DNA from: a virus
Taxonomy: Duplodnaviria; Heunggongvirae; Uroviricota; Caudoviricetes
IMG/VR virus record: IMGVR_UViG_3300025944_000008
Reading direction: 5' to 3' (one strand)
DNA: 64,000 bases
The stretch's first letter is position 1; every line of letters begins with the position of its first letter. A model generated the notes under the pieces. The model had not been told where the DNA came from and made no database searches. It saw only the letters and a list, made by a program, of their open reading frames with translations. Of this stretch, positions 5,587 to 63,400 are shown piece after piece. The position numbers were made by a program, and so were the translations under genes.

Positions 5587-6518
5587 GATGCCTCCAACCA
5601 GCCCTTGAGGCTCTCGAGCTGGGTCTTGAGCTGCATCGAGCGGTACTTCATGAAGTCGGTGGCGATGATGAGGCGAGCCGACTCGACATCTTCGGCCGTC
5701 TCCTGGATCGCGTCTGCCGCCTGCTCAGCGGGAAGCTTGCTCAGCTCTTCGAACCGCTTCTTGGTCGGCTGAGACTCGTAGGTGAGGTGGTACTCGAGGT
5801 TCACGCCCTTGGTCTTGTCCTTCATGTCCGGGTCGGGCTTGAGGGAGAAGGCCTTGTCCTGTTCGTACTTCTGAGTGCAGGTCGGGCAGTGACCATCGAA
5901 CGGCGGAAGTGCCGAGCCGGTCTGCTCACAGTCGCGGCAGCGATAGATCGGCTGAGAGATGTACTCTTGGCAGAAGTCGAGAGGAGGGGCGGCGTAGGTC
6001 ACGCCTTCATGCAGGAAGACTGCGGCGCAATAGCGCTTCACCTCGTCGCTGTACGTCTCTTGGCGGATGCCGCTGGCGATATCGACCCCAGCATAGAGAG
6101 CGGCGAGATCGGGCGGCTGCAGAAGGGCCACCTGCGGCACGATGCCATTGAGCCCAGCAATGACTTTCTCGAAGACCTCCCAGTGGTCCCAGAACGCATC
6201 GATCACATGCAGCGTCTTCGCCGCCATGATCTTGAGACGGTTGCCGGCGTTGATGTGCGTATCGAACTCCCGCTCGATTTCGGCGAAGAGCGTATCGGAC
6301 AGCCAGTCGAACCACTCAACCTGGAAGACCTTGAGCAGCGCCATATCCAAGACAACCGGATGAGCGTCCGGGTGGCTGAAGAGGTTCTTCGAAGACACCG
6401 GTGTTGGTGGAGAGAAGACACCGGACGTGTCGAGGACTGCCCCTACTGGGGCCGCGATCTTCTGCTTCTTCGTCTCTTGCAGGCTCTCGAAGAACGCCTC
6501 GTCCGGCCTCTTATTCAC
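5583..6518 (-). CDS. Hypothetical protein with zinc ribbon (CRDCEQ…CPTC), 311 aa
   Basis: Long ORF in an operon with the portal gene; no recognisable catalytic motif. Confidence 0.5.
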   Translation of the reverse strand: MNKRPDEAFFESLQETKKQKIAAPVGAVLDTSGVFSPPTPVSSKNLFSHPDAHPVVLDMALLKVFQVEWFDWLSDTLFAEIEREFDTHINAGNRLKIMAAKTLHVIDAFWDHWEVFEKVIAGLNGIVPQVALLQPPDLAALYAGVDIASGIRQETYSDEVKRYCAAVFLHEGVTYAAPPLDFCQEYISQPIYRCRDCEQTGSALPPFDGHCPTCTQKYEQDKAFSLKPDPDMKDKTKGVNLEYHLTYESQPTKKRFEELSKLPAEQAADAIQETAEDVESARLIIATDFMKYRSMQLKTQLESLKGWLEAS

Positions 6519-6526
6519 GAGCTCTC

Positions 6527-7078
6527 CTAGCGGATGATGTGAGTCGCCTGGGCTGCGAGCGGCCTCAGCTTACCAGCGAAGTGAGATCCGATCTCGTACG
6601 CAGGATGAGCTCCGAGTATACCCAATCCGGCGAGTTCGTACTTGGCGTGTGACTTGTGCGTCTGGTCCATCGCTGGGTTTCGGAGATCCTTCACACTTGG
6701 GCGAGCAAGGACACCAAGCCCTGCCAGCTCCGCTCCGGCAACTCCAAGGTTCGCCAGCTTGGTGTGGATGATGCCCGAAGCCGCGGCCCGAAGCGGGTTG
6801 GTCCCGGATGACCGAACTCCACCAACGGCGGGCGCCAGCTTCTTCACGGCTCCAAGCAGCCCTCCCCGATGGGTCGGGTTTGCCTGAGCTAAGTGCCCGA
6901 GAGCATTGGCTCCGTTGTTGTGGTAGACGCTCTGTGCGAGCTGAGCATGCGAGTCGAGCCCAGCCGCCAGCTTGGGGAACATCTTCATCGCCGCCATCTT
7001 CACGGCGACATAGTCCCCCGGCACATCGTCTCGCTCGGCGGAGTGCCGAACGAACGCCTTGAAGGTCTCGATGTCCAT
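6527..7078 (-). CDS. Hypothetical protein, 183 aa, with repeated LAGLG(V/I)L segments
   Basis: ORF in the same operon; G/C-rich third positions. Confidence 0.45.
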   Translation of the reverse strand: MDIETFKAFVRHSAERDDVPGDYVAVKMAAMKMFPKLAAGLDSHAQLAQSVYHNNGANALGHLAQANPTHRGGLLGAVKKLAPAVGGVRSSGTNPLRAAASGIIHTKLANLGVAGAELAGLGVLARPSVKDLRNPAMDQTHKSHAKYELAGLGILGAHPAYEIGSHFAGKLRPLAAQATHIIR

Positions 7079-7081
7079 TGA

Positions 7082-8500
7082 TTACTCCGTGCCAGTAGCG
7101 GAACGACGATCACTCGCCATGCGAGCGAGGACGAGCTTCTGCGGCTTGGGTAGCGCCTCGAAGAAAGCCTTGGGCGACTTGGAGAACTCATCGGCGAACT
7201 TGGCGCCGAAAGTCTTGGTGACGAGATGGTGGCCGTTCATGGCCAGATTCTTGAGCTCGGCCTCGTCGGTCCTGGCTCCCAGCTCATCGTAAGTCCAGGT
7301 CGCGGAGGCGAGCTTCTCCTTCGATGGGCCGAAGGTGGTGTACCACGGGTCCATGAGGTTGGTGCCCCAGTGGAAGTGGAGGTTGGTCATGTGGTCGAAG
7401 TCGCTGAGAGCCTCGGCGAAGGTCTCCGGCGTCACGCTGGCCCGCTTCTCGAGCAGCATGTCGAGAGACGAGCGGAACTCCTCCGGGACGAGGTTGCGAC
7501 GGACATTCGTCATCTCGTCGACGTCGGCCGCATAGGTGGTGGAGCCGTACCGCTCGATGTCCTCCGAGATCGGCAGGCCCAGAGAGGCGAGCTTCTGCGC
7601 CAGCTTCACGCAGTAGGTGTGACGATCGCGCGCTGCGAACTGCTGCCAGTTCTCGTCGAAGTAGGCCGATGCGGTCTTCACCTGGTCGTAGGTATCGACC
7701 GGGTAGTGACCTCGGAGGAGCGTCTCGACCGCCTCCGGCTCGACGTTGGTGAAGGCCTGGCGAGGATCCCATCCAGAGATGTCCATGTGCGGGGCCTCGC
7801 GCCAGCCCTTCTGCTTGGCGACCACCTGGCCGGGGGCATCACCGAAGGCGCCAGCGGTCTTGACCATCGCCTGCTTCATGTTGTCGGTCGAGCCGGCGTG
7901 GTCGTCCTTGATGGTCTCCTTGGTGGAGAAGTGGGGGATCTGGATGAAGTTCGTCCCCTGCGGAGAGTCGTAGTTGACTCGGGACTTGAGGTCGTGATCC
8001 TCCTCGTCCTTGCCGAGCTCTGGGTTGTCGTGATACGCCCCGTTGTCCGTCTTGGGCGAATTGAACTGGATCTTGTTGACCTTCGCTCCTCGAGCGTACG
8101 GTGTCTGGCCCTTCCCAGGAATGCCTGAGACGCCGTTCTTGGCCGCCTCCTTCAGCTTCTCTGGGATCTCGAGCTCGTAGTGCTCGCAGGCATCGATCAA
8201 GTTCGAAGCCGCGACCTTCACGGCATCGGGAGGAAGAAGGTGCCCCTGCTCGAGCAGGTAGACGACGGAGAGGGCAGTGTTGCCCTTGTCGACCATGGCG
8301 AACTTCTTCATCTTGGTGCCCTGGTCGAAGAGGACGAGAGCGAAGGCGTCGTCCGGCATCGTCTCCTTCTCGTCCGCCGTCATGCGATGCGCCGTCTTCA
8401 CGAACTCCGGCATTGTCTCTGCCGTGGGGAATCGCGAGACCAGCACCTCGCCTCGAACATCATCGTACTGATCCACCACGAAGCCTGCGATTCCGCGCAT
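7082..8500 (-). CDS. Hypothetical protein, 472 aa (first gene of the minus-strand portal operon)
   Basis: Long ORF; GAGAGGTG RBS 6 nt before the ATG at 8500. No P-loop, so not a large terminase. Function not recognisable. Confidence 0.55.
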   Translation of the reverse strand: MRGIAGFVVDQYDDVRGEVLVSRFPTAETMPEFVKTAHRMTADEKETMPDDAFALVLFDQGTKMKKFAMVDKGNTALSVVYLLEQGHLLPPDAVKVAASNLIDACEHYELEIPEKLKEAAKNGVSGIPGKGQTPYARGAKVNKIQFNSPKTDNGAYHDNPELGKDEEDHDLKSRVNYDSPQGTNFIQIPHFSTKETIKDDHAGSTDNMKQAMVKTAGAFGDAPGQVVAKQKGWREAPHMDISGWDPRQAFTNVEPEAVETLLRGHYPVDTYDQVKTASAYFDENWQQFAARDRHTYCVKLAQKLASLGLPISEDIERYGSTTYAADVDEMTNVRRNLVPEEFRSSLDMLLEKRASVTPETFAEALSDFDHMTNLHFHWGTNLMDPWYTTFGPSKEKLASATWTYDELGARTDEAELKNLAMNGHHLVTKTFGAKFADEFSKSPKAFFEALPKPQKLVLARMASDRRSATGTE

Positions 8501-8647
8501 CTTTCACACCTCTCGAGGAGAGCCTGGGTCTCATCCTACGAGGACTGACTGTCGGGTGCAAAGCAAAACCTCCGAATGCAAAAACTCCAAATCCCCGGGA
8601 TAAGGGCTTGGAGAGGATGCCATTTTCTTTCACTGAAGGAGGACAAA
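8501..8647. promoter_or_regulatory. Divergent intergenic control region between the minus-strand portal operon and the plus-strand early operon
   Basis: 147-nt non-coding gap flanked by two divergent RBS/start sites. Contains imperfect direct repeats tgcaaagcaaaacctccgaa / tgcaaaaactccaaatcc (about 8565-8605). Confidence 0.35.
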
Positions 8648-9217
8648 GTGGGCAACGAACCAGCCGGAGCACCGCATTGCTGGGGGAAGCAATTCGGCGA
8701 AGAAGACGATGAATGCAAGAACTGCCTGTTCGACAGGACGACATGCCGGACCGAGTCGATCAATCACCGATCGATGCTCGACTCGTACCGGCGGCAGGGA
8801 GGGTCGATGCTGCCTCAACCTCGCTACTCACTACCGATGTTCCCGCAACAACCGCAGCAGCCGCCACAGACCTTCTCACAGCGGTTTGGGTACAACTCGG
8901 GATCGGCAATGCCTCAGCCGCCACCGACGAACTATCCTCGACCCGCGATGCCAGCGCCGATGCAGGCTCCCCAGCAACCTTCTGTGGGGTACGCACCTCT
9001 GGCCTATCAGCAGAACGCTCCGGCCGGCTGGAATGCTCCGATCGTGTATCTGCAGAGGCCGAATCCCAACAACCCGGGGGTGTGGCAGTACTCTGGAGAA
9101 TCAACGAGATCTCGCCTGGCAAAGAACGTGATCCTGTCTGCACTCAAGGCCATTTTCGAGGAGCTGTGGAGGTTCTTCGCGAACTGGACTTGGCCCGTTA
9201 GTTTAGGTACAACGTAG
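8648..9217 (+). CDS. Hypothetical zinc-knuckle protein with a P/Q-rich low-complexity region, 189 aa (GTG start)
   Basis: Strong SD GAAGGAGGA 4 nt before the GTG at 8648. The in-frame ATG at 8576 offered by the ORF track has no SD. CWGKQF…CKNCLF…C motif, then PQQPQQPPQ…YPRPAMPAPMQAPQQP. Confidence 0.5.
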   Translation: MGNEPAGAPHCWGKQFGEEDDECKNCLFDRTTCRTESINHRSMLDSYRRQGGSMLPQPRYSLPMFPQQPQQPPQTFSQRFGYNSGSAMPQPPPTNYPRPAMPAPMQAPQQPSVGYAPLAYQQNAPAGWNAPIVYLQRPNPNNPGVWQYSGESTRSRLAKNVILSALKAIFEELWRFFANWTWPVSLGTT

Positions 9218-12375: not shown

Positions 12376-12407
12376 CCTCACCTCCTTCGGGAGGTGGGGC
12401 TTTTCTT
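12376..12407 (+). terminator. Rho-independent terminator with UUCG tetraloop
   Basis: cctcacctcc-ttcg-ggaggtgggg gives a 10-bp stem with one G·U pair and a UUCG loop, followed by cttttctt. Confidence 0.8.
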
Positions 12408-12422
12408 ACCTAGGAGCGATAG

Positions 12423-12710
12423 ATGCCGAAGATGGGACTGGAAGCAACGCTGGACGAGCTGGAGAAGGGCCAGACCTGGCCCGGCACCCGTGCCTTCAAG
12501 TTCGCCGTTCCGATCGATGACCTGAAGAAGTACGGCCTTCGCAAGCCGAAGGGGACGCCGGACGAGCAGCAGTACATCTCGATCTGGCAGCTCGACATCT
12601 GCGAGCAGGGCGGCCAGCCGGCGTCCTTCTGGGGGTTCCGGCTGCTCGACGCGGCGAAGAAGGCCTACGACATGAAGTATCCCAACCAGGCGGTGGGCAA
12701 TGGGTCGTGA
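12423..12710 (+). CDS. Hypothetical protein, 95 aa
   Basis: AGGAG RBS before the ATG at 12423. Confidence 0.5.
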   Translation: MPKMGLEATLDELEKGQTWPGTRAFKFAVPIDDLKKYGLRKPKGTPDEQQYISIWQLDICEQGGQPASFWGFRLLDAAKKAYDMKYPNQAVGNGS

Positions 12711-12999
12711 AGTGACGAGACAGGAAGCAGGCGAGGAAGGCCTCATCATCACCGTCGCTGGCAAGTGCAATCGAGGCAAGACGACGGTGGCTCGCTTCAT
12801 CGAAGAGGCCCTGCGTCGGGAAGGGTTCGTGGACGTCACAGTCTACGACGACCCGCGCGACAGCATTCCCAACAAGGCATCCATCGACCAGCGCATCGAG
12901 GCCACGAAGAAGCGGACGGTCTACATCGAGACTGTCCAGCTCAAGGCGCGCCTCTCGCGTGGAATCGAGCCCGGAGAAGTTCCGATCGCCGAGGACTAG
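12700..12999 (+). CDS. Mini P-loop NTPase-like protein, 99 aa
   Basis: Walker A-like AGKCNRGKTT after a hydrophobic strand (LIITVAG), and a candidate Walker B VDVTVYDD. Too short for a canonical kinase. Confidence 0.5.
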   Translation: MGREVTRQEAGEEGLIITVAGKCNRGKTTVARFIEEALRREGFVDVTVYDDPRDSIPNKASIDQRIEATKKRTVYIETVQLKARLSRGIEPGEVPIAED

Positions 13000-13102
13000 T
13001 CCCATGGAAGTGGTTCTCCCTCACACAAGCTTCACTGTGCGACGCGTCTACAGTCAGAACAGTCGTGACGTAGACAACGAGGTTCTTGAAGGAGAGGCTC
13101 CC

Positions 13103-13387
13103 ATGTCTCAGCAACAGCAGGACTACTACAAGGCGATCATCGGGGACGGGCTCGCTCGCGTCTCCGTCGGGCGCGACATGAGCGAGATGGACTTCGGCTC
13201 CGGCGGCAAGGTGTTCGTGTCCGTCTCCCTCGTCTGCAACCAAGATGCGCAGACCGTCAACTACGCCGTGGGGTTGGCAGCGCAGATCGCGGACTACCAG
13301 ATCGAGCAGCACTTCCAGCAGATGAAGCAGCGCTGCGAAGCCATGGGGCTCCTCAAGCCTGCGGCGCCAGCAAGGCCGGCGTACTGA
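13103..13387 (+). CDS. Hypothetical protein, 94 aa (MSQQQQDYYKAIIG…)
   Basis: GGAGAGG RBS before the ATG at 13103. The longer ORF-track version (12959) lacks an RBS and overlaps the previous gene. Confidence 0.45.
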   Translation: MSQQQQDYYKAIIGDGLARVSVGRDMSEMDFGSGGKVFVSVSLVCNQDAQTVNYAVGLAAQIADYQIEQHFQQMKQRCEAMGLLKPAAPARPAY

Positions 13388-13665
13388 TGCTGGTGTCCAA
13401 GTCGAAGTGCCGGATCGTGGGCATCGAGCTTCAGCAGGCGCATCTCAACTTCGTCAATCCAGCCCTGCCCCCGTTGACGGCGGATTTCGTCCTCATCCGC
13501 GATGACGAGGAGCGGGCTGGGTTGCTGCAGCGACGGCTGGAGTGGAGTCCTCGCACTCTCGCCGCGCTCGCAGAGTTGCAGGATGCGATGGAAGCGGAGA
13601 CACTCGAGCACGTGTTCGAGCCGCAGCCACCGCAGGAGCAAGCACGAGAACCCGAGCAGATGTAG
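13387..13665 (+). CDS. Hypothetical acidic protein, 92 aa
   Basis: ATGA start-stop overlap with the upstream gene. Confidence 0.45.
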   Translation: MLVSKSKCRIVGIELQQAHLNFVNPALPPLTADFVLIRDDEERAGLLQRRLEWSPRTLAALAELQDAMEAETLEHVFEPQPPQEQAREPEQM

Positions 13666-13733
13666 CGTGATAGCAGTTCAAACTTGATCTCCTCTCCCGC
13701 CTGGGAGTAGGACTACAGTTTCGCGAGGACCCT

Positions 13734-14117
13734 ATGGGGAACCACGACGATCGCCGGGGCAGCAACAGATCGATCCCGCCGGCGATAAGCCCGTCCCAGG
13801 CAGGTGAGCTTAGCCGCATGGTCCATGAGGCCCGCGGCAAGTCCCTGGACAACGAGAAGCGCATCCAGGCACTCGAAGCAACGGTCAACGACAAGAGTCA
13901 GTGGAACAATACGGTGCGGGAGTGGATCGGCAAGCAGGTGCTGGTCTACCTCGTCACCGGCGACAATGTTCGCGGCGTGCTTCGAAGCCTCGATCGATAC
14001 ACACTGCAAGTGGCAGGACGGATCTATGACAAGGATGGTGACTTGCTCGTCGGCGCCGAAGAGAGCGAGCTCATCATCCACAAAGGATCGATCGCCGTTA
14101 TCTGCCAAGATAAGTAG
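13734..14117 (+). CDS. Sm/Hfq-like protein with N-terminal coiled-coil extension, 127 aa
   Basis: Sm1-like VLVYLVTGDNVRGVLRSLDRYTLQV and Sm2-like IHKGSIAVI, aligned by eye to Hfq ([25 protein letters not shown] … YKHAISTV). Confidence 0.45.
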   Translation: MGNHDDRRGSNRSIPPAISPSQAGELSRMVHEARGKSLDNEKRIQALEATVNDKSQWNNTVREWIGKQVLVYLVTGDNVRGVLRSLDRYTLQVAGRIYDKDGDLLVGAEESELIIHKGSIAVICQDK

Positions 14118-14165
14118 TCGCATGCAGTACCCGTGATCCAGGCACGGGAAAGGGAGGTCGCGATA

Positions 14166-15578
14166 ATGGCAGCGCACGTGGAATACGCGCTAATCTCGCG
14201 TATTTTGGACTATCAGGATTTCTTCACAGTCCAGAAGGCCCGCATCACCGAGGAGTTCTTCCTCGAGGCGCTTTGTCGCCAGGTTTTCTGCTTCATTCGG
14301 GATCATTTCACGAGCCGATACACCTACGGCTCGGTCCCGAGTTGGGAGATCGTCCTTCAGCGATTTCCTGCCTTCCAGCGTGTCTACAACAACGACACGG
14401 TCTCTACCCTCTGCGAGCAGCTTCACACCTCGAAGCTCTCCATCCAAATCAAGTCACTTGCAGAGCAGCTCTGGGAGATCGCCGAGCAGAATCCCAGAGA
14501 GGCGCTCAGCCTGGTCCGTGCGAGCTCATCCCAACTCTCTGGGATGCACGAGCGGTCCAACGACTTGCTCATGTCGGACGCCTATGAAGTGCTCAAGCAA
14601 GAGTACGACTTGGTGGCCAGTGGGCACGGCCTCCTCGGCATCCCGTGGCCGTGGGACGTGCTCAATGACGAGACTCAGGGCCTGCAGCCAGGGCAGTTCA
14701 TCGTCCTGTACGGACGACCCAAGAACATGAAGACGTGGGTTGGTCTGGCCATCGCATCTCATGCCTATCTACACGCCCACCAACGAGTGCTCGTCATCTC
14801 GATGGAGATGTCATCCACCGACATCCAGCGACGAGCCGCATCGGTCTGCGCCAAGGTCGACTACCAGAAGTGGCGCAAAGCCCAACTGCAACCGTACGAC
14901 AGAGACCGTCTCTTCAACTGGCTGCAGTTCCTCAAGCAGGGCGAGCGCACGGTCACCAACGCGGGTGGCAATCACCCGGAGTTCTTGGCCATGTCCGGCA
15001 TGGGCGAGGGCATCGGGCTGGTGCAGGCCAAGATCTTCGAGTTCCGCCCGACCCTTGTCGTGGTGGATGGCCTGTACCGCCTGCGGAACGACAGAAACAA
15101 AACACGCTCCATCGACTGGAAGGATGTCACGGCCGTCGTCCAGGACCTGAACGAGACGGCCAAGACCCTCAACATCCCCATCATCGGCATCACTCAGGCC
15201 AACCGCTCCGCCGCCAAAGCCTCACCCAAAGAGGCAGACGTCGCAGAGCTCGCGTTCGCCGACGCTCTCGGCCAGGAGTGCGACATGGCCATCCGGGTCA
15301 AGAAAGAGAAGGACCCGCAGACCCACGAGCCGGAGGTCATCATGAGCTTCCCGGCGGCTCGCGAGTACGAAGTCGAGAACATCGTCATCCACGGCATTCC
15401 CGGCGTGAACTTCGGATTCAAGCGAGTCTGGGTCCCTCAGGCTGACCCGAATCAGGGACAGACCCAGCAGAGCAGCAATGGCCAGAAGAACGGTGCCAGC
15501 AAGAAGTCGAACGGCCAGCAACAGATGCTCCCAGGTGGCGGGCGCATGGCACCAAAGCCTCCCTTCGCGCAGTACTAG
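14166..15578 (+). CDS. DnaB-family replicative helicase (RecA-fold C-terminal domain), about 470 aa
   Basis: GQFIVLYGRPKNMKTWVGLAIA P-loop variant, LVVVDGLYRL Walker B, IPIIGITQANR arginine-finger region. GGGAGG RBS 8 nt before the ATG at 14166; the ORF track's GTG 14133 has no RBS. Confidence 0.85.
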   Translation: MAAHVEYALISRILDYQDFFTVQKARITEEFFLEALCRQVFCFIRDHFTSRYTYGSVPSWEIVLQRFPAFQRVYNNDTVSTLCEQLHTSKLSIQIKSLAEQLWEIAEQNPREALSLVRASSSQLSGMHERSNDLLMSDAYEVLKQEYDLVASGHGLLGIPWPWDVLNDETQGLQPGQFIVLYGRPKNMKTWVGLAIASHAYLHAHQRVLVISMEMSSTDIQRRAASVCAKVDYQKWRKAQLQPYDRDRLFNWLQFLKQGERTVTNAGGNHPEFLAMSGMGEGIGLVQAKIFEFRPTLVVVDGLYRLRNDRNKTRSIDWKDVTAVVQDLNETAKTLNIPIIGITQANRSAAKASPKEADVAELAFADALGQECDMAIRVKKEKDPQTHEPEVIMSFPAAREYEVENIVIHGIPGVNFGFKRVWVPQADPNQGQTQQSSNGQKNGASKKSNGQQQMLPGGGRMAPKPPFAQY

Positions 15579-15587
15579 GAGTCGGAC

Positions 15588-16664
15588 ATGAGGGACCAGG
15601 TCATCGCGGTGCTCGAGCGGCACCTCGACCTGGGGAACTATCGTTTCTCGGGCGACTCGAACATCAAAATCAAATGCCCGTTCCACAAGGGTGGACAGGA
15701 GACGAAGGCCTCGTTCTCCATCAATGTCGATACGGGCATATTCCAGTGCTTCACCTGCCACGTCGCCGGCACCGTCAAGAAGCTCCTCTCCATGCTTGGT
15801 CTCCCCAAGCAGACGGTGGATTCCGAGACTGCGGGCCTCAAAGCTCTGTTCGATGCGAACCTCAATGCCCTGCGGCACCGACGCAGGACGGATTGCATCA
15901 ACAACAACCCGTTCGAGGCCAAGCACATCCTCCCGGAGATGATCCTTTCGGCCTACGAGTTCCTTCCAACCAAGCTTGTGGAGGACGGGTTCGATCCCAC
16001 CATCCTGCAGTACTGCGAGGTTGGCTACGACCGCTTCAACAATCGAATCACATATCCGATTCGGGATCTCTATGGTAACTTGGCGGGCATCGCTGGTGGT
16101 CGAGTGTTCGACTATCAGGAGCCCAAATACCTCGTCTATTTGGGTAAGAGGAAGGAGCGAGACACAGGCCGTGTCATCCCCAGCAACTTCGGTCCGTGGT
16201 TCGACGACGACTACCAGTACGAAGGGTACGAGTTCGACAATCACGACTACCTGTGGGGACTCGATAAGGTCTACCCTCGCCTCTTCTTCGGAAAGGAGCC
16301 GCAGACCCTAGTTGTCGTTGAGGGCTACAAGGCGGCCATGTGGTGCATCCAGGCTGGCTGGGTGAACACGGTGGCACTGATGGGCAGCTCGCTTTCGTAT
16401 CGTCAGAAGCAGCTACTCCTCAGGGTCAGAGACAACAAGATCGTCTTCTTCCTCGACAACAACCAGGCAGGGAGAGAAGGCACCAGGAAGATCGCATCCG
16501 AGCTTCACAAGTTGATAAATGGGGTCTTGATTGCCTGCTACCCCGACGACGCTCACGAAGAGTGTCAACCGGACGACCTGATTCCTCAGGCCGTGTCCTC
16601 GGCTATCGCAGGCGCTGTGACGTACCCCAATTGGAGAAAGGGACAAGCTCATGGGAATTGGTAG
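15588..16664 (+). CDS. DnaG-type DNA primase (CHC2 zinc finger + TOPRIM), 358 aa
   Basis: CPFHKGGQETKASFSINVDTGIFQCFTCHVAG matches the DnaG zinc-binding motif. TOPRIM elements VVVEGYKAAMW and FFLDNNQAGREG. Confidence 0.85.
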   Translation: MRDQVIAVLERHLDLGNYRFSGDSNIKIKCPFHKGGQETKASFSINVDTGIFQCFTCHVAGTVKKLLSMLGLPKQTVDSETAGLKALFDANLNALRHRRRTDCINNNPFEAKHILPEMILSAYEFLPTKLVEDGFDPTILQYCEVGYDRFNNRITYPIRDLYGNLAGIAGGRVFDYQEPKYLVYLGKRKERDTGRVIPSNFGPWFDDDYQYEGYEFDNHDYLWGLDKVYPRLFFGKEPQTLVVVEGYKAAMWCIQAGWVNTVALMGSSLSYRQKQLLLRVRDNKIVFFLDNNQAGREGTRKIASELHKLINGVLIACYPDDAHEECQPDDLIPQAVSSAIAGAVTYPNWRKGQAHGNW

Positions 16665-18135
16665 CCTCCGGCAGGGCGCGAAGAAGTTCACCGAGAACAG
16701 CAGCAAGGGTGGGAAGGGCGGGAAGGGTGGCTTCTTCAACAAGCTCCGCATCCCCCAACTGACTCCGCAGCTTCAGGGCATGCTCCGGCCCAACGAGAGC
16801 CCCGGCGAGCCGATCGTGCTCGTCCGCCCCGAGCCGCTCTACGACGACATCTACGACGTCGATGACCACGGCAACTGGAAGGGCACGAAGACCGAGGCTC
16901 TTCACTTCGTCCAGCACCAGGTCAAGCGTATCGAGAACGGCAAGGAGAAGTACGGCGACTTTCCTTGCTCCGCCGGCCCCAGCCCGCACGCTCCTCAGAA
17001 CTGCGTCGGGTGCCAGCAGAATGACGCTGGCAACAAGACCGTCGGCAATGGCCGCCAGCAGTGGGCCTTCAACGTCAAGCACCTCGTCCCCTACCACGAG
17101 ATCCCGCTGGTCGACAAGAAGACCGGTCAGATGCGGATGAAGCAGGACAACAGCGGTCCGGTGATGGTCCTGCAGCAGTGCCAGGTGGGGACGCCGAGCG
17201 AGCGCCTGTACGGCATGAAGAACAACCGCAACGGACAGTGCGAGCACTGCCAGCGCAACATGCCGCTCCTCTACGGCGCTCCGAAGTTCCTCCAGCTCGG
17301 CAAGAACCATCTCGAAGAGCTGTTCAAGGTCGATACCTTCCTCGAGCAGACCTGCGCGAACTGCATGACGCGCCTCATCAAGGTCGCCTTCGACTGCGCC
17401 CGCTGCGGCAACGAGATCCTCAACGTCGCCCAGTCCGGGTTCGTCAACGACCAGCTCAAGCAGTTCGCCGAGACGCCTCAGCAATGCCGTTCTTGCGGCC
17501 ACGTGGGGCTGGCGAAGCCGGCCTACGAGTGCGGCTTCGATCCCAACGGCATGTACAAGGTTCCCCAGGGCGGATGCTCTCAGAACGTCGAGCCGCGGCC
17601 GATGTCGATCTTCGACTGCGTGCTCTTCGTTCACAAGGAAGGTCAGGACACTCAGACCAAGCTCGTGATCTCCCCGCCGACGCCCATCCGGTTCTTCCGA
17701 ACCCACACGGGCAACACGGATCTCGAGCAGTTCCTCCAGCAGCCGCATCTCGTCCGCGGCATCAACCTCGTCGACGCGTTCAAGCCCATCGACCTGGAGG
17801 AGCAGGCGAGGATTTGCGGGGTTCCCAATCCCTTCGCCCCCCAGCAGCAACAGCAGTACCAGAACTACCCGGGGCAGCAGGGCGTGGCGCCTGGTCAGTA
17901 CGCTCCTCCGCCACAGCAGTACGGCGGCCAGATGCCTCCTCAGCAGCCGCAGTATGGTGCGCCGCAGCCTCCTCCGTACGGCGCACCGGTGCCGGGCTAC
18001 CCGCCTCCGCAACAGCAGCCGTTCCAGAACAACGGACCGCTGCCTGCTCAGTCGGGTGCGGGTAACATGCAGTACCCGCAACAGCAGCCTCCGGGCATGC
18101 CGTTCGGCGGTCGTCCCAACTTCGGAAAGCAGTAG
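16651..18135 (+). CDS. Multi-zinc-ribbon protein with a long Q/P/G/Y-rich C-terminal tail, 494 aa; candidate single-stranded DNA-binding protein
   Basis: Four CxxC pairs (CVGC, CEHC, CANC…CARC, CRSC); tail …PQQQQQYQNYPGQQGVAPGQYAPPPQQYGG…MPFGGRPNFGKQ. Sits between the primase and polymerase genes. Confidence 0.6.
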   Translation: MGIGSLRQGAKKFTENSSKGGKGGKGGFFNKLRIPQLTPQLQGMLRPNESPGEPIVLVRPEPLYDDIYDVDDHGNWKGTKTEALHFVQHQVKRIENGKEKYGDFPCSAGPSPHAPQNCVGCQQNDAGNKTVGNGRQQWAFNVKHLVPYHEIPLVDKKTGQMRMKQDNSGPVMVLQQCQVGTPSERLYGMKNNRNGQCEHCQRNMPLLYGAPKFLQLGKNHLEELFKVDTFLEQTCANCMTRLIKVAFDCARCGNEILNVAQSGFVNDQLKQFAETPQQCRSCGHVGLAKPAYECGFDPNGMYKVPQGGCSQNVEPRPMSIFDCVLFVHKEGQDTQTKLVISPPTPIRFFRTHTGNTDLEQFLQQPHLVRGINLVDAFKPIDLEEQARICGVPNPFAPQQQQQYQNYPGQQGVAPGQYAPPPQQYGGQMPPQQPQYGAPQPPPYGAPVPGYPPPQQQPFQNNGPLPAQSGAGNMQYPQQQPPGMPFGGRPNFGKQ

Positions 18136-60491: not shown

Positions 60492-63400
60492 TCAGCCTAA
60501 GAGCCCGATACCCAAGGATCCCGTACCTCCGCCAAGCTCATCGGAATACTCCTGCACCGCGGCACGCCGATCCGGTCTCGGGTCGAGAGCCTTCGAGATC
60601 GCGAACTTCTTGCCCTTCGTCTTGAGACGAGGGAGTTCTTGGTCGGGGTTGTCGAGAAGACCAACGAGGTTGCTGTAGGGCCCAACCGCCGTCGAGTGGA
60701 AGCCAGGCACGCCCGCGGTCTTGCTCAGGGTGCTGCCGTTCTGCTCATATGTCAGATCGACAGACCCCAAGACGTTCTCAAGCGTCGCCACCGGCCGGTG
60801 GGTGTAGTCCGCAATGAAGCGGTGGACGTCCAGGCCCTGACGCCGCACCTCGCCGTAGAGATAGGCGAGGACGTCAGCCGACTGCTCGATGGACGGGATG
60901 TCAGAGAGCTGATCTGGCGTGGCATTCGAGAGGATCTGCTGAATCTTCTGAATGTCACCGTCCGCCGCCTCGACCTGGCTCACCAGCTCGCGCTGCTTCT
61001 GCCTGTTGGTCCCCGTCGCACCGGTGCCAAACGGCGTCTGGAACACGGCCTGATCGACGATGGACCCAGTTCCAAAAAACTGCTGGTAGATGTTGTCCCC
61101 GATGAAGAGGTTCGAGTAGAGCGGCGAGAACCAGGGCGGCCGCAGCGACTCTTCAACCGGAATGGGGCGCAAAACCTTGTTGCTGGTCTGCTGCTCGTAG
61201 ATGACAGCCTTCTGCCAGACATAGACCGTCTTGGCGTTCTTGTTCGGCTTCAGAGCTGTCTGAACGCTCTGCTTCCGTCCAGTCTTGCCCTGTTCGGCGA
61301 ACTCGAGGTCCTGGATGCTCACTGCCATGACCTGGTCGGAGGCCACCTGGATCTGCGTGATGGTCCCTCCCTTTGGACCCTTCTGACCGACGCGAAGCTT
61401 GCCGGCGGTGGCGGGGGAGAGAATCTTCGTACCGTTCGGCCTCTCCGCCTGAATCGTCTTGGCTCGAAGAGGGATGGACCCGCTCGGTTGGACAAGCGTC
61501 GAAGACGCCACCACGGTTGAGCTCAGGTCGATGGAGGGCGCTTGAAGGATGGGGGCGATGCTGTCGAGGTTTGCCGGACGGAAGACAGCACTCGGCCGGC
61601 TCGTGGCCTCCCACGGGTCCAGAGGCTGCTGGTCGCCGAACGGATTGACGTTCTGCTGTGCCTGCTGGTTGTCTTGCGCGATCTGCTTCGCCTCGTCAGG
61701 CGCATTCTGAGTAGTGATGTCGATGAGAGACTTGAGGTTCTTGTAGTCGCCCTGTGAAATGAGTGAGGCCGCATCGAGGACCGTACTCACCTCGGTCTTC
61801 TGCGTATCCGACTGGTACTGGGCCGCGTAGAGCGACAGGAAGTCATCCTCGGTGATGCGGTGCGACCGGGCGTGCGTCATCGTGACGCTCGTGGTCGCTC
61901 CCTCTTGGCCCACCTGGTGCGTCATCGTTGCAATCATGCCGAGGTAGTGCGTCGGCGCTCTGAAGGCGGAGGCGAGCGTCCCAATGTTGGCGATGATATC
62001 CGTCATGTCCGTCGGCTTGATCTCGCTGTTGTTCGTATCCGCCAGGGCGGCGTCGACCAACTGCGGATCGAGAATGAACGGCTTGGTGATGAGCAGTGCT
62101 GGGAAGCCAGGCACCAAGAACGGATTGAACTTCAGCGAGACCTCGAGTGTCCGCGCCGCGAAGCGGTACTTCAGGTAGTTGAAGTTCGCAGCGCGCTGAG
62201 CGTAGTTGACCGCCTGGCCCACCACGTTCTTCTTGATCTGCGCCTCTCGCTTGTTGGCGATGTAGTTGACCTCAGAGACGAGCTCGAACTTGGGCAGAAT
62301 GCCGGAGAACTTCTCCCACGGCAGAAGAGACCGGATGCCAGACGCGCCCTGCTTCTTGGCGAGCTCTTGGATCTCCTTCATCGATGGAGCGTAGTGGTAG
62401 TTGGCGAGAAGCTTCTCGTCCGACGGGATGAAGGTCATGCCCGTCTGCAGACGAAGACGCGTCACTTCCTGAAGGAAGTTGCGACTATAGCTGAACTGGG
62501 TGTACTGCTCCGGGAAGATGACGTTGCACTTCGGAGGAGCAGCAAAGAAGCAATCTGGCCGGAAGACCTGGGTCTGCAGGCGATCGAGCTCTGGCGGGTT
62601 GTTGACCGTCTTCTGCGTGGTGGTCTTCTTCGCCTGGTCCTTGCCAGCCGCACGTGCATCGTTGAGGGCGTTCTGGATTGAGGTCCAGTTGTCTCCGATG
62701 TGCGCAGGCCCGGAGGCGATCTTGGTTGGCTGGTTCTTCGCCTGAATGAGATTGAGCGCGAACGAGATAGCCTTCTGAAGGTTCTTGGTGACCTTCGGAT
62801 TCATGTTCGGGGTCAGAAGAATACGGTTCAGGGAGGAAATCAGGTTCTGCGCGATCTGAGCCGTACTGGCGATCCAGCCGAGGTTGTGGAGCTGAGCATT
62901 GCCGTCGTCGAATTGCTTCTTCGCCTGCTGAGCGAGGTCGGTGAGCTCTGTGTCGACGGCGGCCGGGAAGTTGAATGAGCTCGAGACGGTTACCTTCTTC
63001 GTCGAGGTCGTCTGCTGCACGCCAGGGACGTAGAGAGGTGACGTAATCGGCACCACCTCGTAGTAGACCCAATTGAAGAGCAGCTTGATCATGTCTCGGA
63101 ACGTGACGAGCTCTCCAAGGCTGGTAATACCTCGCTCGAGCCACGCCATGAACTCCTTCTCATCGAAGAGTCGCTGAGCCGTGTTGTCGTTCTGCTCAGC
63201 GGTGATCTGCTGGAGGAGGTGATTCTTGAGCTCGGCAATGGTGAAGAAGTCGTTGATGCCGTGCGTGTGCCGCGGGACGCCACCCATAGCCTCGAGGAGC
63301 GAGATGATGCCTCCCATGAGGCCCTTCACGTTCTGGAGACCGGGCGTCTGCGGCTTCTGGTTGAGGTACGTATTCATCACCGACGAGTGGCCATCGATGA

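Follow-up and report, generated by a model that had tools for sequence, protein, structure and literature searches.

A small gene ahead of the helicase and primase

The window, the whole stretch of 64,000 nucleotides that was analysed, encodes a ribonucleotide reductase large subunit, a baseplate wedge protein, PolA, RecA, UDG and a ResIII helicase, and therefore comes from a large tailed phage. At 13734..14117 on the plus strand is the gene for an Sm/Hfq-like protein, an open reading frame of 127 amino acids running from the ATG at 13734 to the TAG at 14117. The two stretches that the first-pass annotation had quoted from its C-terminal part, VLVYLVTGDNVRGVLRSLDRYTLQV and IHKGSIAVI, can both be read in this frame. 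The start codon is preceded by a Shine–Dalgarno-like GAGGA, read from the sequence at 13725..13729 (+), and related loci carry purine-rich equivalents at the matching position. The protein has a basic, disordered tail (residues 1–19), a long amphipathic helix (20–51) and an Sm domain (54–125); the Sm domain proper, consisting of a helix (54–62) and five strands, is encoded at 13893..14108 (+).

The next gene on the same strand (14166..15578) encodes a DnaB-like replicative helicase of 470 amino acids, counted from the ATG at 14166 (Pfam DnaB_C, 2.5e-24; PHROG 19, 1.3e-44). This ATG, which follows a GGGAGG, is probably the true start, rather than a GTG at 14133, because it agrees with the gene calls on identical metagenomic contigs and because both the GGGAGG and ATGGCNGC are conserved. 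The GGGAGG itself (14152..14157, +) is the dnaB Shine–Dalgarno sequence and is conserved across loci, and GGGAGGTC is kept in nearly all of them, 6–10 nt 5′ of the conserved dnaB start. Behind dnaB follows the gene for a DnaG-like primase of 358 amino acids (15588..16664, +), with matches to Pfam Toprim_2, Toprim_4, Zn_ribbon_DnaG (the CHC2 zinc finger) and DNAG_N and to PHROG 47.

Since the single-sequence Pfam E-values of the small protein are only around 1e-3, under the cut-offs, and since a 154-aa frame overlaps its gene on the opposite strand (13713–14177), one might suspect a spurious reading frame or a chance likeness to the Sm pattern. However, 50 distinct homologues are conserved at the amino-acid level and in their start contexts, the fold prediction is confident, and exactly the same protein is encoded on no fewer than 18 contigs from soil and rhizosphere metagenomes, which are up to 210 kb long. 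This explanation is thus already refuted by the homologues and the structure and retains virtually no probability; the opposite-strand frame was dropped, as nothing supported it.

The gap upstream of the Sm-like gene is 68 nt long, and further upstream, at 12376–12399, there is a strong terminator-like hairpin. Within the gap lies a promoter-like element, TTGATC-N18-TAGGAC (13684..13713, +). An alignment of 15 upstream regions, taken from divergent loci, keeps the spacing TTG-N21-GTA[GC][AG]AC while the rest varies. Judged from its sequence, the element may well function as a promoter; a strict sigma-70 scan did not call it. A promoter repeated through the phage genome was rejected, as only one convincing copy was found in the 64 kb. 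The conserved block was also considered as an RNA structure and discarded when RNAalifold found no consensus pairs in it, and CAGTTCTAA turned out to encode simply the QF-stop with which the upstream gene ends. Because of the conserved promoter-like element, it is plausible that the Sm-like gene is the head of the helicase–primase operon.

The protein and its place in the Sm/Hfq superfamily

Taken alone, the protein matches the Pfam families LSM (E = 1.1e-3), Hfq (2.4e-3) and Hfq_1 (0.15), all under the cut-offs: its scores are 19.1 bits against 23.4 for PF01423 (LSM), 17.9 against 27 for PF17209 (Hfq) and 12.7 against 27 for PF21979 (Hfq_1), and it reaches 17.6 against 61.7 for TIGR02383 (Hfq). 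A PHROGs search gave no match, and the best PDB sequence match of the single protein was to an archaeal Sm protein, 1I8F (3.7e-3). An exhaustive HMMER search of 1.8 billion representatives returned 39 proteins at E < 1e-3, about 35 of which are relatives of 83–127 amino acids. Hfq was matched by all six close relatives and by 27 of the 39 sequences of the wider set. In the alignment of 39 sequences, made up of the window protein and its relatives, Hfq_1 was likewise matched by 27 (best E = 2.3e-11) and LSM by 15, weakly or below threshold. Two relatives exceed the Hfq_1 cut-off of 27 (P0036 with 33.3 bits and P0051 with 28.2), and several match the cyanobacterial Hfq-related family NF047718 of NCBIfam (3.5e-7), none of them reaching its cut-off of 52. 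Profiles of the family match almost only Sm, LSm and Hfq chains in the PDB. For the larger subgroup (profile A3) the best of these is Anabaena Hfq, 3HFN (1.1e-4), and hhalign against E. coli Hfq gave a probability of 76% (E = 2.2e-5). The Sm/Hfq resemblance is weak for the single sequence and far beyond chance once the relatives and the structure are added.

The Sm/LSm/Hfq fold consists of an N-terminal α-helix followed by a strongly bent, five-stranded antiparallel β-sheet, and the predicted structure has this same arrangement. The AF2 model comprises an N-terminal helix and five strands, with pLDDT values of 92–96 at residues 61–100 and 111–127 and of 82 at the variable loop (101–110). The best 50 Foldseek matches are almost all Sm, LSm and SmAP chains, together with one chain of a NatC complex (probability 1.0, target-normalised TM 0.61–0.85), so that the Sm-like fold proposed in the first-pass annotation survives the comparison. 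That annotation had also described a coiled-coil extension at the N-terminus. The helix is borne out by the prediction (32 residues, 20–51, block-mean pLDDT 58–72), whereas a true coiled coil is suggested by weak HMMER matches to coiled-coil proteins. Within the disordered tail of the family, a short P-G-I-S motif is conserved.

Rings of Sm and Hfq proteins are hexamers or heptamers closed through pairing of strands β4 and β5. Since, to our knowledge, all solved Hfq and Sm proteins form rings, we infer that the phage protein assembles into a hexameric or heptameric ring as well.

The superfamily is recognised by a Gly and an Asp in the Sm1 motif, with an Asn too in Sm/LSm proteins, and by an Sm2 motif that reads [R/K]-G, or Y-K-H in Hfq. 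These motifs are present in the phage family: in the window protein, Sm1 comprises G81 and D87-R88-Y89-T90, and Sm2 is H116-K117-G118. Conservation was counted over 50 distinct members, namely those of the alignment and others read from loci that had been fetched in addition. Y89, T90 and K117 are invariant (50/50), W57, G81, L83, D87 and R88 are conserved in 49 and W64 and H116 in 48, and position 118 is Gly in 40 and Ala in 9. The Sm1/Sm2 pattern that had been noticed in the C-terminal part is thus real, its residues at G81, D87, R88, Y89, T90, H116 and K117 being kept in 48–50 of the 50 homologues.

The likeness to the Sm2 motif of Hfq in particular, which had also been claimed, holds only in part. 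In the hhalign register, D87 corresponds to D40 of Hfq, Y89 to F42, K117 to K56 and G118 to H57. The lysine is therefore kept, but His57 is replaced by glycine, and the Y-K-H-A-I sequence of Hfq is absent from the window protein, which reads H116-K117-G118-S-I. The Sm1 Asn position, on the other hand, is Leu, Ile or Met in the family, as in Hfq. By its motifs, the family is a hybrid, with an Sm-type [R/K]-G in Sm2 and an Hfq-like hydrophobic residue at the Sm1 Asn position. It was not filed as Hfq proper because the Hfq, Hfq_1 and LSM thresholds are missed and Hfq His57 is absent. The residues that line the nucleotide pocket of Sm/Hfq rings are kept, namely Gly and Asp in Sm1, an aromatic where Hfq has F42, and Lys-Gly in Sm2, and the conservation of Y89 and K117 at the positions of Hfq F42 and K56 suggests that the protein binds single-stranded RNA. 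The protein is a divergent, phage-specific member of the Sm/Hfq superfamily to which an N-terminal basic tail and a long helix have been added.

A small β-barrel of this kind might also have no role with nucleic acids, serving instead as an assembly or scaffold subunit or as an enzyme accessory (as NatC Naa38, MnxE/F and GerQ), in which case the conservation of the motifs would be purely structural. Such a role is improbable: the best 30 or so structural matches are RNA-binding Sm, LSm and Hfq proteins, the aromatic and the lysine are invariant at RNA-contacting positions, and the gene lies within the replication module and not in a structural module.

The family is known only from metagenomic phage contigs of 119–210 kb, with members other than the window protein on contigs of 119–207 kb. 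A scan of one genome each of 185,579 prokaryotic species found no member, so that in those data it is neither a prophage gene nor a cellular one. Searches of 50,697 cultured-phage records by tblastn with the window protein and two relatives gave nothing at E up to 1–5, and blastn of positions 13000–17000 of the window gave no match to cultured phages; among the helicases of cultured phages, none shares more than 26% identity with that of the window. When IMG/VR was scanned with the alignment of close relatives, nothing was found. The automatic names in IMG include “snRNP-like protein” for a few members, on which no paper was found in the literature. Sm-fold proteins as such are not especially rare among phage proteins, though essentially unstudied: BFVD holds many uncharacterised ones, a few of them annotated as RNA-binding or Hfq-like, and its Sm-fold proteins of cultured phages include those of Gordonia phage Reyja, Mycobacterium phage Tonenili and Agrobacterium phage Atu_ph07. 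The earlier remark that Hfq-type proteins are rare in phages therefore needs correction.

Linkage to the helicase gene

The surroundings of the gene were compared by fetching related loci and scoring their open reading frames by phmmer against the proteins of the window. Every sufficiently long locus has the order p142, p92, Sm-like, DnaB, DnaG, p494, PolA, and the Sm-like gene is immediately 5′ of the helicase in all 19 distinct loci, the window included. The identity of the helicase was confirmed in 17 of these, 16 by phmmer and the window by its annotation; in the other two it was recognised by its conserved N-terminus before the contig ends. The placement of the gene directly before DnaB-like and DnaG-like genes, as first annotated, is therefore not peculiar to the window. 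The 19 loci include relatives only 25–55% identical to the window protein; however, they all belong to one broad clade of soil phages of roughly 120–210 kb, and the synteny could therefore partly be inheritance.

A second, very distant lineage (L012, L026–L031) encodes an Hfq-like protein of 73–84 amino acids that lacks the N-terminal extension. Its Sm1 has the same LLWVDRYTL motif as the window family, and its Sm2 is a canonical IYKHAIK in both members that were read (L026 and L027). By combining a WVDRYTL Sm1 with a YKHAI Sm2, this lineage ties the family to Hfq. The gene is one gene upstream of a DnaB-like helicase, with a primase next in L012; this helicase is not BLAST-similar to that of the window (E = 0.12). 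The recurrence in two lineages implies that the Sm/Hfq–helicase neighbourhood is either old or recurrent. Together with a conserved stem-loop before dnaB (described in the next section), the position of the gene suggests that the Sm-like protein controls or assists the replication machinery.

One way in which it might do so is as a partner of the helicase itself, the main rival to the control of the helicase message that is set out below. The ring, or the N-terminal helix and tail, would dock on the hexameric DnaB-like helicase or on the helicase–primase complex. It would work there as loader or brake, or else as a coupling factor keeping single-stranded DNA, primer or R-loop RNA close by, and the gene order would reflect a partnership between proteins, not mRNA control. 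The gene adjoins dnaB in every locus of the first lineage and is one gene upstream in the second, and the search of the replication module turned up no recognisable loader, whether of the DnaC, IstB, lambda-P or any other kind. Phage loaders are often small and encoded just before the helicase, as in the G39P–G40P pair of SPP1, and the conserved P-G-I-S in the disordered tail is typical of a protein-docking peptide. On the other hand, no known helicase loader has an Sm fold, and the protein has no Pfam, PHROG or NCBIfam match to the known loader families (DnaC/IstB, lambda P, SPP1 G39P and T4 gp59); its structural matches are Sm proteins, without any loader fold among them. Conservation is highest in the nucleotide pocket and not in a surface patch assignable to protein contacts, and the second lineage does without the N-terminal tail and helix. 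The closest curated family, cyanobacterial Hfq, does work by docking on a hexameric ATPase, PilB1 (PMC4390875). On balance, a helicase partner is a rather doubtful explanation, if one with several points in its favour.

Decidedly unlikely, by our assessment, is a more specific arrangement in which the Sm/Hfq ring is a dedicated replisome component docked with six-fold symmetry on the hexameric DnaB-like helicase. It would either load or gate the helicase or keep a transcript or primer RNA in place by its 3′ end, so that replication could start from an R-loop, and the stem-loop would mark the RNA or site concerned. If true, this would be the first Sm-fold helicase cofactor.

The stem-loop before dnaB and the helicase message

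The 48-nt gap between the stop codon of the Sm-like gene and dnaB contains a conserved stem-loop, CCCGTG-ATCCAGG-CACGGG (14130..14148, +), located between that stop codon and the dnaB ribosome-binding site. In the window it ends three nt 5′ of the dnaB Shine–Dalgarno sequence, and across loci the distance is 3–18 nt. Each of the 19 distinct loci has a single version of the stem-loop, invariably at this junction, and it is unique within the 64-kb window. Outside the window's own clade it reads CCCGYGTTCCAGCGGG; in the window sub-clade a 6-bp stem has been rebuilt around an unchanged TCCAG core. All 15 of 15 sequences form the five core pairs, and all six stem pairs together are standard pairs in 92% of cells. 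The changes in the stem include one compensatory C-G to U-A, two U-G to C-G and a covarying outer pair, and the U-G pair can form only in RNA of the sense strand. However, so little of the element varies that covariation is thin, and in a shuffle test the observed number of pairs with changes on both sides was reached by 28 of 500 shuffles.

Several other identities of this hairpin were considered and rejected. It is not thermodynamically special, its folding energy being like that of shuffled sequence (z from −0.7 to +0.9), and it is not an intrinsic terminator, as it was not among the terminator-like sites called and a T-run follows it in only 2 of the 19 loci. Rfam over 13600–14300 returned only noise, with no match to the stem-loop. 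Mimicry of a tRNA T-arm was discarded because the loop resembles UUCRANN in some loci only, pairing of the loop with an upstream TAGAAC (L009) because it showed no covariation, and an anti-Shine–Dalgarno role of the 5′ arm because only 3 bp are possible. The loop motif has one further exact match in the window, at 61038–61048 (−), which lies inside a 1124-aa open reading frame, has no good stem and is probably there by chance.

The stem-loop gives the idea of RNA-based regulation a concrete candidate target. The reading that we favour, tentatively but as a quite possible one, is that the Sm-like protein is a ring-shaped binder acting post-transcriptionally on the helicase message. The gene would be transcribed from its own promoter-like element as the first cistron of the helicase–primase unit, and its product would form a hexameric or heptameric ring that binds single-stranded RNA. 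Its most likely target would be the stem-loop together with the A/U-rich spacer that immediately precedes the dnaB ribosome-binding site. Binding there would adjust how well the helicase mRNA is translated or how stable it is, whether for feedback or timing or to shield it from nucleases.

This reading draws on the matches of the relatives to Hfq, Hfq_1 and NF047718, on the alignment of the invariant Y89 and K117 with the proximal-site residues F42 and K56 of Hfq, on the order Sm-like, dnaB, dnaG in all 19 loci, and on the single-copy stem-loop before the dnaB Shine–Dalgarno sequence, whose changes preserve pairing. A stem-loop beside an A/U-rich single strand is a classic Hfq binding module. 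There is also a precedent in phage T4. Its gene 41 encodes the replicative helicase, and RNA with the 5′ untranslated region of that gene becomes more stable through the LSm-like protein GoF(D25Y); wild-type GoF has little effect, and GoF(D25Y) also gives a modest increase with other 5′ untranslated regions (PMC12152347).

Control of the helicase message is weakened, however, by the replacement of H57 with Gly and of the Sm Asn with a hydrophobic residue, which leave a pocket that is not identical to any characterised one. It is weakened further by the thin covariation and unremarkable folding energy of the stem, and by the fact that the 19 loci are one clade while the second lineage has no hairpin of this kind. 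Moreover, the single strands favoured by Sm and Hfq rings are rich in U or A. The GC stem and GUUCCA loop are unlike these, and the hairpin may therefore be read by another factor.

Alternatively, the protein could be a general phage RNA chaperone or a host-takeover factor that binds many phage or host RNAs, for instance as a competitor of host Hfq, as a guard of phage transcripts or as a sink for sRNAs. Its linkage to dnaB would then be a matter of expression timing, along with the early or middle replication genes, and the hairpin would be an unrelated element for processing, stability or attenuation. The evidence from the fold and the pocket applies equally to this explanation, many unrelated phages carry uncharacterised Sm-fold proteins, some of them annotated as RNA-binding or Hfq-like, and the modest effect of GoF(D25Y) on RNA with other leaders would also fit. 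Nevertheless, a general chaperone is unlikely, since strict adjacency to dnaB at 25–55% identity, together with a second deep lineage, exceeds what timing would need, and since the family is confined to these phage clades.

Among known systems, bacterial Hfq (PF17209, TIGR02383) is one of the closest. The phage protein scores below the thresholds of these families and has H-K-G instead of Y-K-H. Bacterial Hfq has a C-terminal tail, whereas the phage protein has a basic tail and helix of 50 residues at its N-terminus, and, unlike in bacterial Hfq, the β3–β4 loop is long and variable. Hfq is the product of a chromosomal hfq gene, while the phage protein is encoded in a replication module. The cyanobacterial Hfq-related proteins (PF21979, NF047718; PDB 3HFN and 3HFO) are the best-scoring curated family for the relatives and share with them a G-x-L-x-W-x-D pattern. 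However, they lack the aromatic at the F42 position, which is invariant in the phage family, as well as the N-terminal extension, and occur in other hosts and other genomic surroundings. Archaeal SmAP and eukaryotic Sm/LSm proteins (PF01423) have the Sm1 Asn where the phage family has Leu, Ile or Met. Rof/YaeO, which is Sm-like and inhibits the hexameric helicase Rho, matches the structure far less well than true Sm/Hfq proteins do and has no sequence relationship to the phage protein; Rof, moreover, is monomeric.

On the RNA side, T4 gp43 and RegA use hairpin operators at the start sites of replication genes. The gp43 operator, the RegA sites and the gp32 leader share with the element at 14130–14148 a short conserved hairpin close ahead of, or overlapping, the ribosome-binding site of a replication gene; the likeness is one of position relative to the dnaB Shine–Dalgarno sequence, and no similarity in sequence is claimed.

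What is new at this locus is the architecture of basic tail, long helix and Sm domain, the coupling to a helicase gene in two deep lineages and the conserved leader stem-loop. Phage-encoded Sm/Hfq-like proteins are almost unstudied, and the first described family, T4 GoF/MotB.1/Frd.2, dates from 2025. If the protein binds the leader, it would be a compact example of control of a phage replisome at the RNA level by a viral relative of Hfq, and if it binds the helicase instead, it would bring a new fold to the few helicase cofactors. In both cases, many Sm-fold phage proteins that now lack an annotation would also gain a function.

The GoF family is also the closest parallel. Like the window protein, its members are phage-encoded and have a predicted LSm-like fold (PMC12152347). 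A tblastn search of 50,697 phage records found no sequence homology to the family. The LSm-like domain of GoF is at the N-terminus, whereas the Sm domain of the window protein follows the N-terminal tail and helix, and GoF is not adjacent to gene 41, whereas the Sm-like gene of the window adjoins dnaB. The one known phenotype of the GoF family nevertheless concerns the mRNA of a replicative helicase, and it is the same link, between an Sm-like protein and the message for a helicase, that is proposed here for the window protein.

Putative transcription signals and the dnaB leader

A single stem-loop lies directly upstream of the dnaB ribosome-binding site (14130-14148, plus strand), in the leader that separates the gene for the Sm-like protein (13734-14117) from that for the DnaB-like helicase. 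It is conserved, occurring once per locus in all 19 of the related loci (distinct loci, the window among them, in which the Sm-like gene immediately precedes dnaB), and its loop core, TCCAG, is nearly invariant across them. Rfam holds no match to it. The loop motif, CCGTGTTCCAG, has a second exact copy in the window at 61038-61048 on the minus strand, within a 1124-aa ORF. This copy was considered as a second element, but no good stem surrounds it, and its presence is probably due to chance.

Upstream of the Sm-like gene is a conserved promoter-like element, TTGNNN-N18-TA[GC][AG]AC (13684-13713, plus strand), which occurs nowhere else in the window; it is not among the sites that a sigma-70 scan called. 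A strong terminator-like hairpin, CCTCACCTCC-TTCG-GGAGGTGGGG followed by CTTTTCTT, is found 3' of an 80-aa ORF and 1.3 kb ahead of the Sm-like gene (12376-12399, plus strand), and likely marks the boundary of a transcription unit.

Genes flanking the Sm-like and dnaB genes

The Sm-like gene is preceded on the plus strand by genes for two small proteins, p142 (13103-13387; 94 aa as called) and p92 (13387-13665), neither of which gave a match in family searches. In the related loci both always stand ahead of this gene, forming a fixed block with the order p142, p92, Sm-like and DnaB. Further upstream, a 99-aa ORF (12700-12999, plus strand) has weak P-loop kinase-like matches, to Zeta_toxin (2.2e-3) and PRK (4.7e-3), both of them sub-threshold. 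In L008, a related metagenomic phage locus, the small-gene block 5' of the Sm-like gene includes an 83-aa ORF (1618-1869) with a precomputed Pfam match to PF26761 (Acb5, an anti-CBASS family).

In the related locus L020, the DnaB-like gene (6325-8985) encodes 887 aa and contains an intein that carries a LAGLIDADG homing endonuclease (Pfam LAGLIDADG_3, 3.4e-13; Intein_splicing, 2.2e-5). In another, L013 (6190-6610), the frame departs after the conserved first five dnaB codons (MAANI) and helicase similarity picks up again about 450 nt farther on, which suggests that a mobile element, an intron or some other insertion lies near the 5' end, or that the sequence is misassembled there.

Between the DnaG-like primase and PolA, and overlapping the primase stop by 14 nt, is a gene for a 494-aa protein (16651-18135, plus strand) that is conserved in all related loci. 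The protein contains several CxxC pairs and ends in a long C-terminal tail rich in Q, P and G. Its sole matches are faint, to an MCM OB-fold (Pfam, 0.08; NCBIfam, 0.026), and it has no relative in the PDB. It may be an unrecognized ssDNA-binding or origin protein.

On the minus strand, 29050-58126 is occupied by a run of very large ORFs of 1228, 1355, 768, 1569, 731, 512 and 2270 aa. This is a structural region, largely unannotatable: PHROG and Pfam matches are almost absent, except that the 1569-aa protein has a baseplate-wedge domain. Nowhere in the window was a tRNA gene detected.

A second phage lineage with an Hfq-like gene

A very distant phage lineage also has an Hfq-like gene near DnaB (L012, 4456-4710; L026, about 450-687; L027, 1075-1296; also L028-L031). 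Here a ResIII helicase gene and then a 127-172 aa ORF precede the Hfq-like gene, and a Cys-rich 207-252 aa ORF separates it from DnaB. In L012 a primase comes after DnaB, and MoxR/CbbQ-type AAA+ and CobT-like genes are found downstream in this lineage. The Hfq-like protein, labeled “sRNA-binding regulator protein Hfq” in IMG, is 73-84 aa long without an N-terminal extension and includes the motif LLWVDRYTL, and YKHAI is present in both of the two members read.
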